Source: Eledone cirrhosa
Taxonomy: Eukaryota
Reading direction: 5' to 3'
Assembly (NCBI GenBank): GCA_964016885.1
Contig: OZ024743.1
Span: 86,056,001-86,120,000 of the forward strand
Length of the DNA stretch: 64,000 nucleotides
Part shown: piece after piece, positions 6,501 through 57,616 of the stretch
How the letters are laid out: every line of letters begins with the position of its first letter
Numbering within the stretch: position 1 is the first letter of the stretch
Made by a program: the position numbers and the translations under genes
Notes under the pieces: generated by a model
What the model was told of the DNA's origin: nothing
The model's database searches: none
What the model saw: the letters and a program-made list of their open reading frames with translations, nothing else

Positions 6501-9500
6501 CTTGGTAATGAAGAATGGAACAACAATTTTTATTTTCTGTGATAAAACATTTTACTTATTCTATTGTTACTGTTTACAGAAGACAGCAATGGTCAAAGTA
6601 AAAATATTAGGCGTCCATTAAGCCCCGTAGAATTTTCTGATGAAGATTATAAAGCTATGTTAAGAGATTACAAACGACGGAAAACAGAAAATGGAGTAAG
6701 TATTACAACATTTATTTTTGGGTCTCAAATAATTACCCCCTCCCCTACCAGATGAGCACTAGGGCAATTTTCCATTGTCCCTGACCCATAGCAAAGAGGA
6801 TGGTAAGAAACCAATCAATATATATACTCTTGGGTCTCGAATAATGCCCCACACCTCCACCCACTGCTTATTAATTTTTGATTTTTTCCTCTGGCTTATT
6901 AAATGTTGCTAGTCTATCTCTGGCAACATTTTATTTTAAGTGGTAGCATTCCTGCGTCAATTAGTTTTCTTTATACATTATACATGTAAAAAAAAGTACA
7001 TTACTAGAAATCCCATAACTTATAAAATAAATTCTGTTTTTTTTTTTTAATCAATAGAGACAACCTAGAAAAATTACAGACCCCCCCCCCCCTCATTATT
7101 TGGGACCCAAGAGTACACAACTTTAGGAATTGTGGCAGGCCATTGATTTAAAAAGAACCTTTTTTTAAATATTTATTTGCTTTTGACAGAATTGTCAGAA
7201 CATCAGAAAAATGGTTTGCAGCATTTAATTATGGTGTTTTATGTCCCGAGTTTATATCCTGCCAAGATCAACTTAGTTTTTTGTCCTTCTGAGGTTGATA
7301 AAATAAAATACCGGTCACATACTGGCGTTGGTAGAATCAACTCTCCCTTTCCTTGAAATTGTTGGCCTTATGTCAAAATGAGTCATTAGACTGGACATGC
7401 TGGGGCACCACGTTGATAATAATTTTTTTTTTTTTCCTTTTCTTAACATCATTTTTTAAATTTTCTTTTTGAAGGAGCAGCCTGAACTGGATATCAGGTC
7501 AGTCACTCTTGCAGACATTTTGGCTCGGTGCCAGGCTGTTAGAAAACCAACTCCAAAGTCTCCTTCAGGTAAATCTATTTGCAATTTTTCATTGATCATT
7601 CATCATCATACGTCTGCTTTTTCTTGCTTGCAAGGGTGGGACAGGTTCTTTTCAGCACAACATCTCTCCATTCGTCACGGTCCTTTATCATCTCCTCTGT
7701 GAGCTTCAGCGATCTGAGGACAGCTCTTACCACCTCCACCCATGATTTTCGTGGTCTTCCTCTACTGCGTCTTCCTTCCACTGGGATTTCTTGACACTTC
7801 TTTACCCAGCGGTTATATTCTATGTGCATCACATGTCCATACCAACGCAGTCTTCTCTCCCCACACTACAGTTTATCCCTCTTATACACAGTTTCACTCT
7901 CAACTCGTCTATGTTTGGTCGTTCATGCACATTGACATTGCACATCCATCAGAGCATGCTTGCTTCATTTCTCTCATTATCAAAATTATCATAACAGTCA
8001 TCAATTCCATCATCTCATTACTACAGAGATCATCATTGTCATCATCAATACCAGAATAAACACTGCCCCACTACACCTTCACCATCACCACTTAGTAAAG
8101 AATATCCGAAGTTGGGACAGCTCTCAGTCAGTGGAATGTGTTGTGCTATAGTTATTTATTACACTAACTTTACAAAAATAAAGTCAATAAAGGCTGAAGA
8201 CCTGGGGCCTGCTTTAGTAAAAATCTGAAACAGACAGCTAGAGAAACAGTTGTACCTAAATGACTCCATAATTAGTATAATCTCTCTCTCTCTCTATATA
8301 TATATGCATTAAGTGTTTCTGTAGAAAAGGTAAAGGAAGGAAGAGTGCTCTATGTATTGTACAGAGCTATTTAATTACATAATAAACAATACAATATAAT
8401 TATTCCATTACCAAAGGTTTCAAGAAACTAGACGATTCTTACAGAAACGTCTAGCCTGTTCATCAGATGAAATAGTTGACCATTTAATGGAATAATTATA
8501 TTGTGTTGTTTATTATGTACATAAATATATATATATATTGGATATGAACAGGAGTTGTAGTGTTTCTTCATGCTTCTTACAAGGAAATTGAGAATGGAGT
8601 ACAGCTGAGAGTAAAATGTTTCTTGTATTCTTATGTATTCCATTGTTTTGTTTTTTGCCTTTTTTATTTTTTGCGTGTGTTTTACTTGTTTCTTTTACTT
8701 CTGTAGCCATTTCTGAAGAGACAACAGCATCAAGCCCGACAGTTATGAAAAAGGTGAAGAAAAAGGGTGAAAAATTAAAGAAGTTAAAAGCAAACCGAGT
8801 TGACAGCATTGCTAAGAAGGGCAATGTCGCTAATCAAGAAGATGTTAGTGGAATGGAAATACCAGAATTGCTTACGAGGGAAGAAGAATGTGTTCCTGAA
8901 TTCCCTCTTCAGGAGTAAGTAGATGTTTTGATACTTTGTTGGATATTTTCAAGAGTTACCTAGAGCACCTAGGGAGCCAGACCATTTGGTTAATACAGCT
9001 CTGATGACACCCATTTGTTTCTCCCAGAAATGTTCTCTTTTTTTTATTTAAAGTTTAGTTAATAGATTTGACATCATCATCACACGTCTATTTTCCACAC
9101 TTATATTGGCAGAGTCATTAAGACATTGGGTATAATGCTTTACAGCAAAGGTTCTCAACCCATTTCGGCCAAACACCCCCTTTTGCCCCTCGAAATCATG
9201 AAACGCTCCCCCTACCCGATTTTTCCATTTTTCAATATACTACTGATTTTGATATCTGATTTTGATACTGGGCCAAATCAAGTTATGTTAAAATCTTTAA
9301 AAAATACTCGTACGAATTAAATACAAAAAAGTTTCAGTCCAAAACAAAAGCAAGCTATTTCAAATTATATATTTTTGAAATAAAAAAAAAAAAGATTTGA
9401 TCTCAGTCGAAAAGCATTTTTTTTAAAATTCTATATTTCACTGTTAGCTGTTGTAATATTTTGAGTGTATAGACAATTGAAACTGTAAAGTCAAAATACA

Positions 9501-9985
9501 AAAGATGCAAAATATGAAGAATTTCTTACCTTTCTCTGAAATCACAAACTCAGGGAAAAAATAGTACCTTGCAAAAAATATACCTCATAGCAAAATAAAA
9601 TACATAGTAGCAAGGAATGAATTGAGAAGCTTGGTGACTGAGAAAACAATATCTGTATCCCTTATATATATACATAGAGAGATACACACATAAACACGCA
9701 CACACACACATAAATACACACAGAAACTTGGTTTTGGTACAGAAAGAATTTTGACTCCAGTTTTTATTGCCAGGTCAAAGGCCACTGCTCTTTTCAACAA
9801 CACCAAATAACAACGCCATATATATATATATATATAAATGGAGAGAGAAAGAGGTGGTGACAGAGAGAGTAAGAAATGTGTGTGTGTTTGGTAAACGTCT
9901 ATCTATCTATCTATTTATCTCCAACAGGGGGCTCAAACATGGTAGACCAGACTGAAAAAAGAAAATATATATATGTGTGTGTGTG

Positions 9986-10028
<43 letters not shown>

Positions 10029-11596
10029 TTCAAAATATTAACAAAAATAGAACTTCTTGTGATAAAGTATATTTTTTGTTAATCTTAATTTTTAAAATTA
10101 TAACTGTAATTATTTTATAAAATATATAATATGAATTATTTTCAATATAATATAAATAATTAAATATAATATAATAAAATTTAATAAGAATTACCTTCAT
10201 GAGGATGAAAATATGTCTTCTTTCTCATGTTTGCAAATAGTTTAAATATGATTTCATAAAATATGATTTTATAAATTAAATATGATAGTATACTTTAATA
10301 TTAATACAGATATTTATAAACTTTTATAGCCTGAAATATTATACACTTTGATTAATTCATTACTCTGAACTAACTTAAATGATTTGAAAGTTAACGGTCA
10401 ACCGGATACATTTGGATAGTATATATAACTAATTAACTAAGGACTGGAAATTAACCTTCATATAATTACACCCAGTTATATTTAAGATTTAGATTGATGA
10501 ATACTTCTAGATAATTTAATAATTCAAAGATTTGAGTTTACTCTTTCGCAAAGCTATGCCCAAATGTATAGTTCTGTATAAATATATATAATTCATCCCT
10601 CCCTATTTTTTTACACTATAAAAATTATTCCTCTTTGTCTCTCTTTCCTTGATCAATTCTCTTTTGCTCTCTATACTTCTACTAGCTATATTATCCCCTC
10701 ATCTGTTTTCTCTCTGTCTTTCTTTTTTTCTTTCCTTTTTCTTCAATAATTTAAATTATTTGTATCTCTAACAGTTATGTAAATTGCTGTTATGTATTTT
10801 TAAGCTTTCTCACATGCACCCTCTGTATTATATGTATTATATGTAATTTTATCCATGTCTCAATCTTAAGGTATATAAATATTGAGTTTTGTCATATCTT
10901 ACTCACTACCATGACTGGATCTTAACCATCTACTATGTCAGGGTATGTCATGCATCATCTTATTTTATCTGATGAGGACGTACTGTTGAAGTTAGCTCAG
11001 TACCTCTGAAATATATATAATAAAATATACTTGATCACAAGAAGTTCTATTTTTGTTAATATTTTGAATTAATATTAATAACTCCGGAAAACCATTACTG
11101 TTGAGTGCTTCCAATCTATTGTAAAACTCATTCTTTGATTTATTCATTGAACCTTGTTTAACCTTTAAATATATATATATATATATGTAAAAGTTTTATT
11201 AAAATTGTTGGGATACAACGAGCAAATATTTTTATAACTGATATAAAGCACTCAACAAATAATTGGAGTAAAAATACGATATTAACAAATGGAAACTATA
11301 TTTATAAAACCATATTTATTTCATTATACATATTTCAAGGACACCAAGTTAAATTATGGTGTGCTTTCGTCAGATAAAATATAATATAGAGCAGTTTTAT
11401 AAATAAATATTGACATACCGGGAGCTTCCAACAGTAATGGTTGCATTCTTTAAGGGTATGTCAATATTTATTTATAAAACTGGTCTATATTATATTTTAT
11501 CTGATGAAAGCACACCATAATTTAACTTGGTGTCCTTGAAATATGTATAATGAAATAAATATGGTTTTATAAATATAGTTTCCATTTGTTAATATC

Positions 11597-11679
<83 letters not shown>

Positions 11680-14600
11680 TCTTATACACTTAAATATAAA
11701 TGCATGTATATATACAAATGTATAAATGCATAGCTATATACATACGTAAATGTATGTATGTATGTAAATTTATATATGTATGTATGTATGTAGATATATA
11801 TATATGTGTGTGTGTATGTGTGTGTAGATTTATATATATATATATATGTATGTAGATATATATATATATATATATACATACATACATACATGCATACATA
11901 TATACATACATACATTTACGTACATAGCTATGCATTTATACATTTGTATATATACATGCATTTATATTTGTTTTGTCTTTTTTTGGTAAGGAGAAAATTC
12001 TGTCTTGAGATTTTATTACCTAGGGAGATTAAATACCACATCTCTGGCTGAAAGCTGACCAGGTTCTCAACCTCATCAAACACTAACGCAGGCCTGTGTG
12101 TGTATATATGTGTGTGTATGTATGTATGTATGTTCTTCTGGTTTTATAATTTCACAAATTTTTTCCCAATAGAGAGAGAGAGTCGGTTTCTAACATAGTT
12201 ACAAGACTCTCTCATTGGAATTTACACAACATCAACTAGGTAGATTATGTATACATGCATGCATGTGTAGATATGGATGTTATTGTATGTGTGGATGTGT
12301 ATGTTTTGAGTTGTATGTGTGCATGTGTATATGCTTTGTATCTGTACATGTGTATATGCAGTTATTAGATACAAAATGTTTGGAATATTTTACATATTTT
12401 TACTGTTCCATTAATGGATTGTACTTGTAATTTCCTAACTATGTATGTATGTATGTATGTATGTATGTATGTATGTATGTATGTATGTACGTATGCATGT
12501 GTGTGTATGTATATGTATACACCCACACCTTTCATCACCATTGCTTTTTGTTGTCATTTCTGTTGAAGTTCTTGTAACTGTTGTCAAAGTTGACATCCTT
12601 ATGTTTATTTTCTTTGATTTCTTTAATTTTTTTTTAATCTCCCTAGGGAATTCGTTGACAAGCTTCTTTTATTTATTTTCTTCGTTTTCTTCATTCAAAT
12701 GCATTCACACTGGCTGTCTAAGAGACGTACAAATATGACTTATAAAATTTACCAAACTAAAAAAGTAAAGGGGGTTCCCAGTGCTCCCCAAAGCTTCAAA
12801 CGCCCCACGGGGGAGCATATGCCCCCCATTGAGAACCTTTGCTTTACAGCATTCATCTCACCTCATTGCGATCTCTGAGTTCAAATCCTGCCGGGGTCAA
12901 CTTTGCCTTTCAGCTTTTCAAGGTCGATAAAAAAAGTACCAGTCCAGTACTGGGGTCGATTCTTCCTCTATAGAAAAAATCGGTTATGTTGAGACCTGGT
13001 GAGGGTTGGGCTCCGCCAGGTTTAAAAGTGCCCTAGACACACCATTTGACAGTGTCTCTACAACTCCACAAGGAGTTATGGGATAGAAGCTTGTTGGATT
13101 TGTTTTTTGGTTTCTACAGCTGGATGCCCTTCCTTAGAGAGAATATAAATTTCTATTAAAATATTGCTTACATGTGGCCCTATGATCTTTGCAATGTCTA
13201 ACTTACATGTTTATGTTCACTTTCAGGACTCTACCGCCTAAGTTACCATTTGGCCAGTATGAAAGTTTCTTCAGTCTGTTAAGAGATCTCATTTGTGAAT
13301 TTCCTGATGCTAAAGTTACAACAGCAAAGGTAAACATCTACCATTTTTTAATTCATTTGATACCAAACTGTCTTAGGTTCTATTGATTCAGAGCTGTTTT
13401 TTCTAAAGTGTTTATATTTATCTAAAAATCTTCCATCATAATTTCATATAATAACCTTTATGTTATGCTCAAAACACCAGCTTAATAATGAGAAAGTTAG
13501 TTATATTACTAACTTTTTCCAAACTTCATTATTTTCAAAATTATTTGAAAATCACAAGCAATGTCTTTCATTAAAAATATGGGATGGAAAGGGTTAAAAT
13601 GTGAAAGAAAAACAATATTCTTTTTTTATTTTGTAAGTTCACATATTAAATGTTTCACAAGGTTTATTCTGGTGTGGCCAAGTGGCTAGGGTGTTGTTCT
13701 CATAATCGCAAGGTTATATGTTAATTTTTGGACCAGGTGGCACATTGTGTTCTTGAGAAAGATACACCATTTCATATTGCTTTTCATGAGAGAACTCTTT
13801 CTCCTCCACCCATCACTATTAAAACAATATAAAAGATAAGAAAGTTAATTATTTTAATAAATCCTTCCAAATTATTGATCATTTTGAAATCATTGGCAGT
13901 ATATTTTATTAGAAATATGGTAATGAAAGAGTTTAAAAAATAATTTCTGTAGCTATCTAATTCATTTAAAAGCACAACATACGAGGGGGTGTTGAAAAGT
14001 TACTGGCTTTAAGAGTTTCACGAAAGAGTTGAGCTGTTACATTTACAGGGGAGGTAGGACTGTATGTGAATGTGAGAGGGGAATATGTTGAATAAAATCA
14101 TAATTTTGACAGATTTTATGGGCAAAACCAACTGACAGGAGACCCAAAGGCAGACCTCGAGCAAGATGGTTGGATAACATCCATGAGCTTGGCCGGTCAC
14201 ACTTGAAGATCCAGTCGGATCAGTTGGTGATGGTTGCTTCTGACAGGACCCACTGGAAGGGAGTGTTTCAGGACTTTGTCCCCATGACCCTCTCAGGAGC
14301 AAGTAGGCAAAGAAGAAAAGAAAACTGATCCTCCTGTATTTTCTTTTACCCAAAGCCAGGAACTTTTCAACATCCCCTCGTATATTTTTATATTTTTTCA
14401 GTTGGATGACAAAGTGAAAGAGTGGCAAGAATCACCCACAAGTTCTCTTAATCAGTGGATAAACCTACAAACTAACTGGGTTGAGAATGTTGTGTCTGCG
14501 CTAAAGTTTCTTTCAGGTGATGTTTATGGTAAGTGGCTGTTCCATTGTTAATTTCATCATCATCATATATCATCATTGTTTAACGTCCATTTTTCCATGC

Positions 14601-40600: not shown

Positions 40601-41165
40601 AAACACCTGACCATTTTCCTAACTTTAACACAGCCACTTAATGAAAATCCCGTGTTTGATTAGAATAAACGAACCTTGAAAATTAGGAGTGCCTGCATTT
40701 GTATCATTCTGTATCACTATGTATTTTTCTCTAAGTATAGTTTTTTCAAAGAATTCCCATTTTTGAAATCCATCAGCCAATGACCTCCACTCATCCAAAT
40801 CACCACCTTCCCCTACCACCAGAAAATGTATAAGCACCACCATAACACATTGACAATCGGCTTTCCTAATGATTTCCTTCGAATAAAACACCTCTAGTCT
40901 TGTAGAAGCCATTTCTACATTAAATATTTATACTCTGCTATGTATTGAGTACCTTATTGTGGTTACCCCTGATTGAACCCGGGATAAACACACACACACA
41001 CATACATTCATTATATATATATATATATAAACAATGAGTTACATGCTTGTTGATAAGTATTCAACAGAGTTATGTTCATAATGAAGCACTCTACAAATAA
41101 ATTTTATCTGGAGTATTATAATATTAACAATAGTAATAAATGTAAAATATCACTATAGCATCATA

Positions 41166-41224
41166 TTTATTTTATACATATTTCAAGGAAACTAAATTAT
41201 AGTATGCGTTCATCAGATAAGTTA
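41166..41224 (-). ncRNA. Degenerate hammerhead motif of the 11.5-kb family
   Basis: Minus strand ttat-CUGAUGA-acgcatacta/tagtttcctt-GAAA-tatgta-UA; gggtatgtca upstream as in the other copies. Confidence 0.6.
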
Positions 41225-41637
41225 CAATATTTGAAGTATAAGATAGTGACATACCCAAAATATAGACCTCAACTGTCAAATTACATTGGGTATGTGAATT
41301 AAAATCTCAAAATTTCTTAGGATGTAAATTAGTAGGGATATAGTAAACAAATAAAAATACTGTTATGATAGATGCTTGAAAGTAAAAAAAAAATAACGTA
41401 GTTATAATTGGTCATAAAAAGACTGTTAGAGGAGATATATCTCCTTATAATATATAACCAGCAATTTCTCTGTCTGTCTGTCTGTCCGACAGTGGAAACA
41501 CGTGCGTGCATGCTTGCGAATGTTTTTTGCGCATGCGTAGAGAGAGAGTGAAAGAAAGAGACAGACTACAAGAGGGGGATAGCGGGAGGGAGAGAGGGGG
41601 GGAATTGAGGAGTGCTACAGAAACATATATACATTTC

Positions 41638-57138: not shown

Positions 57139-57616
57139 AAGAATAAGAAATATGATAGCTTGAGGGGACGGGTGGGATGGAATTGGAAAAAATGTCTTTA
57201 GATAAAAATAACAGGTCCATTCATGTTGACATCTCTTGCAAAACTGTTGGTGCTGGCTATATATAATATATATATATATTATGAATGTATGTATAGTATA
57301 TATGGCAATATACTGTATCTTTAATTAAAAACATTTAGAAGACCATATGCTATCAGTTTTAAAGTAGTGACTATGTTACTTCTTTTCAGCGAAAGAAGAG
57401 AGAGAAGCTGACAGTCTGTTTCACGCTGGTTGGCATTCATCAGAGCCACGTACTCCCCTACTACTGCCGAAAATTATAGAAGCTGGATTCTTATAGAATT
57501 CCATTAATAATGAGGAGCTGATTATACAGAACGATTGCCGGTCCAGCACAAATTAGGTATTAGGATTGGTGCTCTGAAATAGCAATGTAAAATGATGATG
57601 ATGATATAATATATAT

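Follow-up and report, generated by a model that had tools for sequence, protein, structure and literature searches.

The closest described relatives of the sequences considered here are Penelope-like elements (PLEs) of the Hydra clade (Craig et al. 2021, PMC8557442), a cephalopod member of which, Hydra-1_Obim, is listed in the supplement of that paper. As described there, the clade is diagnosed by RWK and DKT motifs, a CxCX5C linker, CxxC and CxH on either side of a conserved E and N, the lack of CCHH between GIY and YIG, and insertion into (TA)n targets, and its units are generally <3 kb. The same source describes PLE copies that are inverted and 5'-truncated, insertion at (TA)n and tails on one side, which for PLEs in general measure 30-40 bp. 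The minimal, palindromic hammerhead ribozymes of metazoan PLEs (Cervera and de la Pena 2014, PMC4209133) are reported as type I, with a stem I of 4-5 bp, a long stem II, a G-C pair at 10.1-11.1 and a weak palindromic stem III; truncated copies are many, pairs on opposite strands lie 100-700 bp apart, and activity is low, even as dimers. For the element Poseidon PAc of Anolis (Frangieh et al. 2024, PMC11167929), two reverse transcription start sites have been shown, and two 3' ends downstream of the hammerhead define the tail. The Poseidon ribozyme, as assayed in that work, did not cleave without the element protein, and in vivo its cut site yielded no RNA ends. True tandem retrozymes, in contrast, are described as showing efficient dimer cleavage and circles (PMC7229834; bioRxiv 10.64898/2026.07.22.740005), and in the axolotl retrozyme hammerheads dimer folding raises cleavage (PMC7229834).

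The window, by which we mean the whole stretch of 64,000 nucleotides that was analysed, harbors two sense-strand hammerheads, HH1 and HH2, within a single intron, and these are the 3' ends (pLTRs) of two different high-copy Penelope-like families, A and B. We favor, at a probability of roughly 0.88, a neutral pile-up of two Hydra-clade fragments in which HH2 is locked in a 146-bp hairpin. A neutral pile-up of insertions had been the last alternative listed in the first-pass annotation, and it matches the genome picture of dispersed families A and B.

The two elements share with the Hydra clade of PMC8557442 the frame motifs, a hammerhead in the pLTR, the (TA)n targets, the inverted 5'-truncated arm and a tail at one end. 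They differ from its description in a longer unit of about 4 kb, because the 3' untranslated part measures 1.5-2.2 kb, and in RWR instead of RWK; the tail of about 86-90 nt also departs from the length given for PLEs in general. Against the four Hydra rows of the supplement the hammerhead sequence is unlike, with a 9-pair stem II and a kept C.C mismatch, and families A and B seem to be absent from those rows and to be new members of a known clade. The ribozymes resemble the hammerheads of PMC4209133 in type, in a long stem II and a weak palindromic stem III, in the abundance of truncated copies and in closely spaced opposite-strand pairs; they differ in a stem I of at least 8 bp, a palindrome of 8 nt and a G.U or A-U pair at 10.1-11.1. 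Poseidon PAc (PMC11167929) is similar in the definition of its tail by two 3' ends and in its AT-rich targets, yet it belongs to another clade, and its cut site lies inside the frame start, against about 185 nt before the open frame here. The non-LTR retrozymes of PMC7229834 and bioRxiv 10.64898/2026.07.22.740005 are alike in the type I fold, the same-strand pair a few hundred bases apart, the AT-rich surroundings and a PLE-tied origin; unlike them, the locus has no head-to-tail unit, its ribozymes come from two families, and what lies between is a one-off join of A tail and B fold-back. The retrozyme comparison drawn in the first-pass annotation fails because the 530-nt stretch is no repeated unit and its halves derive from different families; no second copy of a 530-nt unit occurred among the scored matches.

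The host gene is NFRKB, as had been proposed: an exon near 15.0-15.2 kb gives a Pfam NFRKB_winged match (E 3.6e-13). The GT..AG intron is listed in Table 1. From left to right, the order is (TA)n, A inverted arm, A sense with HH1 and tail, (TA)n, B tail and inverted arm, B sense with HH2, and (TA)n. In run X4, a sequencing run of unrecorded kind, a 4670-nt contig spans both flanking exons at equal depth and skips the intron ends; it would represent spliced mRNA, and the animal sequenced need not carry insertions A or B. In run X6, from a related organism, the flanking exons are covered and A and B are almost uncovered at 85% likeness, which does not prove their absence. Directly behind element B there is also an inverted repeat rich in microsatellite (11692-11969; 114 nt, 82% complementary), a second possible hairpin within the intron. 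Elsewhere in the window a tRNA-like match at 2652-2709 on the minus strand, just over the Rfam cut-off, is probably a SINE head, and similar pieces lie near 12870-12930.

Table 1. Coordinates of the host intron, the two insertions and their ribozymes (window positions)
Feature	Positions	Strand	Details or basis
Host-gene intron containing both insertions	8915..13226	+	GT..AG, phase 2; flanking exons in frame
(TA)n run, left end of element A, target (inferred)	9987..10025	.	Sequence
Element A inverted arm	10022..10075	-	Ends at short (untailed) 3' end; pairs with 11022-11075
Element A, Hydra-type Penelope-like family	10076..11165	+	5'-truncated 3' untranslated part and pLTR
Element A tail	about 11076-11165	+	~90 nt
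Hammerhead 1 (HH1), type I, family A	10961..11027	+	Stem I 10961-10968/11020-11027; core CTGATGA 10969-10975; stem II 10976-11007; GAA 11008-11010; stem III segment 11011-11018; predicted cut after A11019
(TA)n between long ends of A and B	11169..11187	.	Left half of B target (inferred)
Element B inverted arm	11188..11419	-	Tail 11188-11273 (86 nt) and intact hammerhead 11317-11381
Element B sense arm	11420..11600	+	Ends at short 3' end; hairpin loop 11420-11454
Hammerhead 2 (HH2), type I, family B	11493..11557	+	Stem I 11493-11500/11550-11557; core 11501-11507; stem II 11508-11537; stem III segment 11541-11548; predicted cut after A11549; predicted wholly paired in hairpin
(TA)n run, right end of element B	11601..11634	.	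Sequence

Hammerheads were located by a structure-aware scan of the whole window, which reproduces both of the sense copies proposed earlier, with predicted cuts after 11019 and 11549, 530 nt apart. The minus-strand hammerhead within the inverted arm of B is likewise intact, with the core CTGACGA at 11373, and the cores of all three copies are preserved. In each copy CUGANGA, GAAA and NUH stand in type I order around three helices, with stem I open; stem I has 8 pairs, stem II has 3 + 6 pairs split by a C.C mismatch, stem III is an 8-nt near-palindrome, and the site is AUA, a legal NUH. The first pair of stem II (10.1-11.1) is G.U in HH1 and A-U in HH2, and the G10.1-C11.1 pair of fast hammerheads is absent. 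In an Rfam search no hammerhead model matched HH1 or HH2, even at E 10. Among 17 variants, chosen by hand from 80 distinct variants in the fetched loci, 6 of the 9 pairs of stem II change on both sides, as does 1 of the 8 pairs of stem I; stem III pairs hardly vary and carry little information. Pairing across the same 17 variants holds in 92.8% of cells and exceeds chance, shuffles giving 87.1% (0/500) and slid controls 38-56%. That stem II covaries between families argues that the ribozymes were under selection within the elements. The C.C mismatch itself (columns 23 and 49 of alignment A2) is kept across A, B and relatives while the neighbouring pairs covary, and it is possibly a tertiary or protein contact.

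The stem III segments of the two ribozymes are mutually complementary, as had been reported, ATATATAT of HH1 pairing with ATATGTAT of HH2 with one U.G. The HH2 segment is the usual one, found in 47 of 62 family A matches and 87 of 91 family B matches (duplicates included), and the HH1 segment is a rare variant. Since ATATGTAT is usual in both families, the complementarity is family-wide and no special feature of the locus. The accompanying claim, that hammerheads with a palindromic stem III cleave well as dimers, is borne out by the axolotl retrozymes (PMC7229834) and does not extend to the Penelope type as assayed (PMC4209133, PMC11167929).

Both families are abundant. For family A, a first look gave 3344 candidates with HH1 and its flanks and 1141 with the upstream stretch 10190-10620, which likewise belongs to this family; the 40 that were scored are 93-100% alike, and the best other copy of HH1 and its flanks is 97% alike. 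For family B, separate searches gave 143, 1487 and 1318 candidates dispersed on many contigs, and five other loci are 100% identical to HH2 and its flanks over 181 nt. A and B are alike only over 67 nt around the ribozyme, at 72%, and of the 29 other top-scoring A loci none carries an attached B. In one run the contig depth sums to 4-9 x 10^5 over B, compared with about 7 on the exon, which is no copy number and can be read only as very many B copies. Within the window, 41159-41228 on the minus strand holds an older, single-armed relative of family B (72-76% alike) whose hammerhead has a shortened stem II. At 11424-11443, about 110 nt upstream of the cut site, family B carries a 14-nt exact reverse complement of part of the A tail (11089-11104), which may reflect pairing between pLTR sides, or a relic. 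Six repeats of one B insertion beside a non-LTR reverse transcriptase frame, at ~40-70 kb spacing (loci L133-L135 and L139-L141, G000:C4, about 352.0-352.3 Mb), form a segmental array.

The window itself contains no frame, and the nature of the parent elements is seen in longer copies elsewhere, which join A and B to an upstream Hydra-type RT/GIY-YIG frame. Walking upstream in other copies, A runs on for more than 1.3 kb and B does likewise, and each leads into a frame that has YRDD, a cysteine linker and an end resembling GIY-YIG. The window A is 96% alike over 1096 nt to a copy (L152) that continues into the frame and that stays in step with two further loci, L153 (2678 nt, 93%) and L159 (2673 nt, 91%). 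For three B loci (L155, L157 and L144) the arms can be aligned without a break between frame and pLTR, over 2080-2526 nt. In two loci, L217 and L225, the frame is flanked by a pLTR on each side, and the hammerheads of the latter lie 3951 nt apart. The A and B frames are 56% identical.

From 150 scored matches, 10 long-frame B-type loci (562-753 codons) were fetched, in which DKT and YRDD are each present in 10/10 and RWR, not RWK, in 6/10; in 7/10 the hammerhead lies 1.5-2.2 kb behind the stop. Stop-free B-type frames of 743-753 codons exist. The linker is CNCRNKSNC in the B type, with CDLC..E and CRH, and CNCRNRPDC in A, with CNLC..E; only one Cys is found between VY and YVG/YIG, so that there is no CCHH between GIY and YIG. 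The N-terminal part of the A frame was not recovered, and the observations on RWK and DKT concern the B type. YRDD is invariant in 38 aligned relatives, 2 of which carry Pfam GIY-YIG, and atlas neighbours of the frame carry HTH_animal, GIY-YIG and RVT_1. A fold search with the frame gave weak matches, the top 50 all reverse transcriptases (best E 0.012), and direct comparison of the frame with Pfam, NCBIfam and solved-structure sequences gave no match naming it. TATATA lies within 14 nt of 46/49 B short ends and 12/12 A short ends. Together, the motifs and the (TA)n targets, with modest library support, suggest that A and B belong to the Hydra clade. The Neptune clade, a first guess, was dropped, the frame motifs being Hydra's, and B was likewise dropped as a 270-nt non-autonomous element, being the 5'-truncated end of a long one. 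The pLTRs of intact-frame copies are only 84-92% alike to the window B, so these copies are sister subfamilies of it; the source copy of this young B subfamily was not found among the fetched loci.

In element B, 11274-11419 and 11455-11600 form a 146-nt pairing in which 2 positions differ, one as G.G and the other as G.U. The first-pass annotation had described an almost exact inverted copy of the second ribozyme at 11275-11419; the near-exact pairing holds, and the extent does not, as the copy runs from 11188 to 11419 and includes the tail at 11188-11273. HH1 also has an inverted arm of its own, overlooked earlier: 10022-10075 matches 11022-11075 at 53/54 and covers 6 of the 8 bases of the 3' strand of HH1 stem I. 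Insertions of this kind usually carry an inverted 5'-truncated arm, and what had appeared as a built-in antisense copy is such an arm. The arm difference of 2/146 is within the range of other sampled arm pairs. The arms of one insertion share minor variants at 42/87 sites, or 48% against 10% for shuffled partners (0/2000 shuffles), far in excess of chance pairing, and an origin of the two arms from two RNA molecules is not supported. At window position 11483 (family B site 455) the two arms disagree at a C/G site in 7 of 11 informative insertions, with linked variants the same in both; this is likely an effect of locus choice, the loci having been picked for one allele there.

The two ends of an insertion are as a rule unequal. 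With duplicates removed, the tail is present at one end and missing at the other in 56 of 57 two-armed B insertions, whereas about half would be expected if two equally common ends combined at random. In the first set, one long and one short end were found in 33/34 outward-facing B pairs and 6/8 A pairs. A fresh set of 40 loci added 25 two-armed B insertions, all 25 with one tail, along with 12 single-armed loci and 3 without a call; 29 of the 40 had been chosen by tail match, and in these only the partner arm is the test. The one-sided tail is a known tendency of the elements described in PMC8557442 and is near-absolute in family B here. A fixed mechanism can be suggested tentatively, at somewhat less than even odds, in which a two-subunit complex nicks both (TA)n strands and primes at an inner and an outer RNA start site, 86-90 nt apart, one per strand. 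If so, the tendency would become a mechanism, every inverted insertion would arrive with its hammerhead bound by an antisense arm and unable to harm the host transcript, and family B would offer a young, very large family for the study of Penelope-like integration.

The juxtaposition of the two families recurs. The junction of A tail, (TA)n and B tail is present at 4 other loci (L113-L116) among 40 scored, with other A subfamilies and with B of other shapes and geometry, which argues for repeated independent landings, not one copied composite. After removal of 34 named duplicates or off-topic loci, 169 loci were kept, 130 of them with an intact motif; two same-strand hammerheads lie within 1 kb in 11 of these 130, and an antisense hammerhead lies between two sense ones in 5, the window included, with L116 repeating the layout at 554 nt. 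Since the loci are top matches, and L113-L116 were picked for the junction, these figures show recurrence, not genome rates. The long end of other A copies is followed by TAAA(TA)n, which suggests that B split the (TA)n run behind the A tail. Element A, whose closest copies are 96-97% alike, would have inserted first, and element B, with its five loci identical over 181 nt, later; no empty site came to light.

In the favored reading, two separate insertion events into a (TA)n run of the NFRKB intron are likely. Element A would have landed first as a fold-back with a 54-nt arm, and element B would have followed, splitting the (TA)n behind the A tail. From the literature, an endonuclease would nick the AT-rich DNA, and the reverse transcriptase would start at two internal RNA sites, giving tailed and untailed ends. 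In the pre-mRNA, the antisense arm of B is predicted to be made first and to zip HH2 into the 146-bp hairpin, HH1 to fold poorly alone, its 3' stem I strand being lost to the 54-nt arm, and the intron to be spliced out as usual. The hairpin would then be an ordinary double-stranded RNA editing substrate, like many others of the family, and the ribozymes would be kept for the element's own cycle, with the pLTR copy about 4 kb away as their natural partner.

Folding bears out the long hairpin, which the first-pass annotation had proposed as a fold silencing the second ribozyme, and speaks against its companion, a double hammerhead in the pre-mRNA. Equilibrium models, which leave out tertiary contacts, proteins and kinetics, predict the hairpin (146 bp; duplex -218 kcal/mol) with probability 1.0 in transcription snapshots once HH2 is complete, and cross helices at 1e-7 or less. 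Without its arm, HH2 would fold well (stem II 0.93-0.96, stem I 0.34); since the polymerase reaches the inverted arm ahead of HH2, HH2 would at no time be free. On paper the double hammerhead is a nested fold that needs no pseudoknot, with cross helices of 8 + 8 + 8 pairs including two U.G. It is predicted to lie above the best fold by +143.5 kcal/mol (10940-11610) and +177 kcal/mol (10000-11640), and still by +17 kcal/mol when the arms are barred from pairing. Against neutrality stand the two intact cores, the 8-bp stems I, the legal AUA site, the geometrically possible nested double fold, the small gap of 11-16 kcal/mol between HH1 and its monomer fold, and the distance of 950 nt from HH1 to its blocking arm upstream; each hammerhead is predicted to be blocked by its own inverted arm, so the locus is likely neutral.

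A first alternative is low-level cutting of pre-mRNAs by HH1 on its own, whether as a transient monomer, in trans with the copy of another transcript or aided by the element protein, before the 54-nt arm can reach it, which would slightly lower NFRKB output. HH1 is intact, its monomer fold lies 11-16 kcal/mol above the best fold, stem I is predicted at up to 0.07 just after synthesis, protein-assisted cleavage has been shown for the Poseidon element (PMC11167929), and the stop-free B-type frames could be counted in its favor. We nevertheless consider such cutting improbable: the upstream blocking arm drops stem I to 1e-7, the monomer stem III comprises two A-U pairs, the first stem II pair is G.U and not the usual G-C, and Penelope-type hammerheads assayed alone were weak or dead as described in PMC4209133 and PMC11167929.

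Still less credible is a mixed double hammerhead of HH1 and HH2 that excises a 530-nt RNA, ligatable to a circle, and so cuts the NFRKB intron. All three cross helices can form, stem II covaries across the families, and dimer folding aids cleavage in the axolotl retrozymes (PMC7229834), but the energetic cost relative to the hairpin is the one given above, with cross helices at 1e-7 or less in every snapshot. The partners, moreover, belong to different families and apparently to different dates, the stretch is no repeated unit, and any two A or B copies are complementary in stem III. Two joints in run X1, 11027-11557 and 11531-11007, were considered as a sign of a circle and rejected; they join similar hammerheads, through other copies or chimeric mapping, in what is apparently a DNA run.

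Long intronic duplexes are ADAR substrates. Co-option of the 146-bp hairpin by the host, as a double-stranded RNA that would regulate NFRKB through editing, as a small RNA source or as a splicing modulator, is equally hard to credit, for although the hairpin is predicted with certainty at -218 kcal/mol, 57 sampled B insertions are two-armed, many with short loops, and arms differing at 2/146, as expected of a young insertion, do not mark this copy out.

Read as a neutral pile-up, the locus explains away an apparent ribozyme switch as one of very many Penelope-like fragments. It also carries a warning for ribozyme scans, as elements that target (TA)n pile up and by default place hammerheads with complementary stems close together in pairs. 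Young, abundant and with open B-type frames, families A and B are good material for questions on inverted arms, one-sided tails and the cutting of host transcripts.

Other hammerheads were encountered in the same searches. At 57406-57447 on the minus strand the window contains a compact type I hammerhead with a GUC site, which belongs to a separate dispersed family (2403 candidates, best other copies 95% alike). An abundant PLE family (L012, L111; 57381 first-look candidates) was considered as a partner and rejected, no pLTR being shared with A or B. This third Hydra-type family has 784-codon open frames in head-to-tail arrays. Its hammerhead (L111:1179-1270, in a 3.5-kb tandem array on G000:C1) is of type I with a long stem II, a 6-pair stem III and a core in which U3/A8 replaces C3/G8, a change found in 10/10 pattern matches and of a type reported for a Schistosoma element in PMC4209133. 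A scan limited to C3/G8 would miss this hammerhead.
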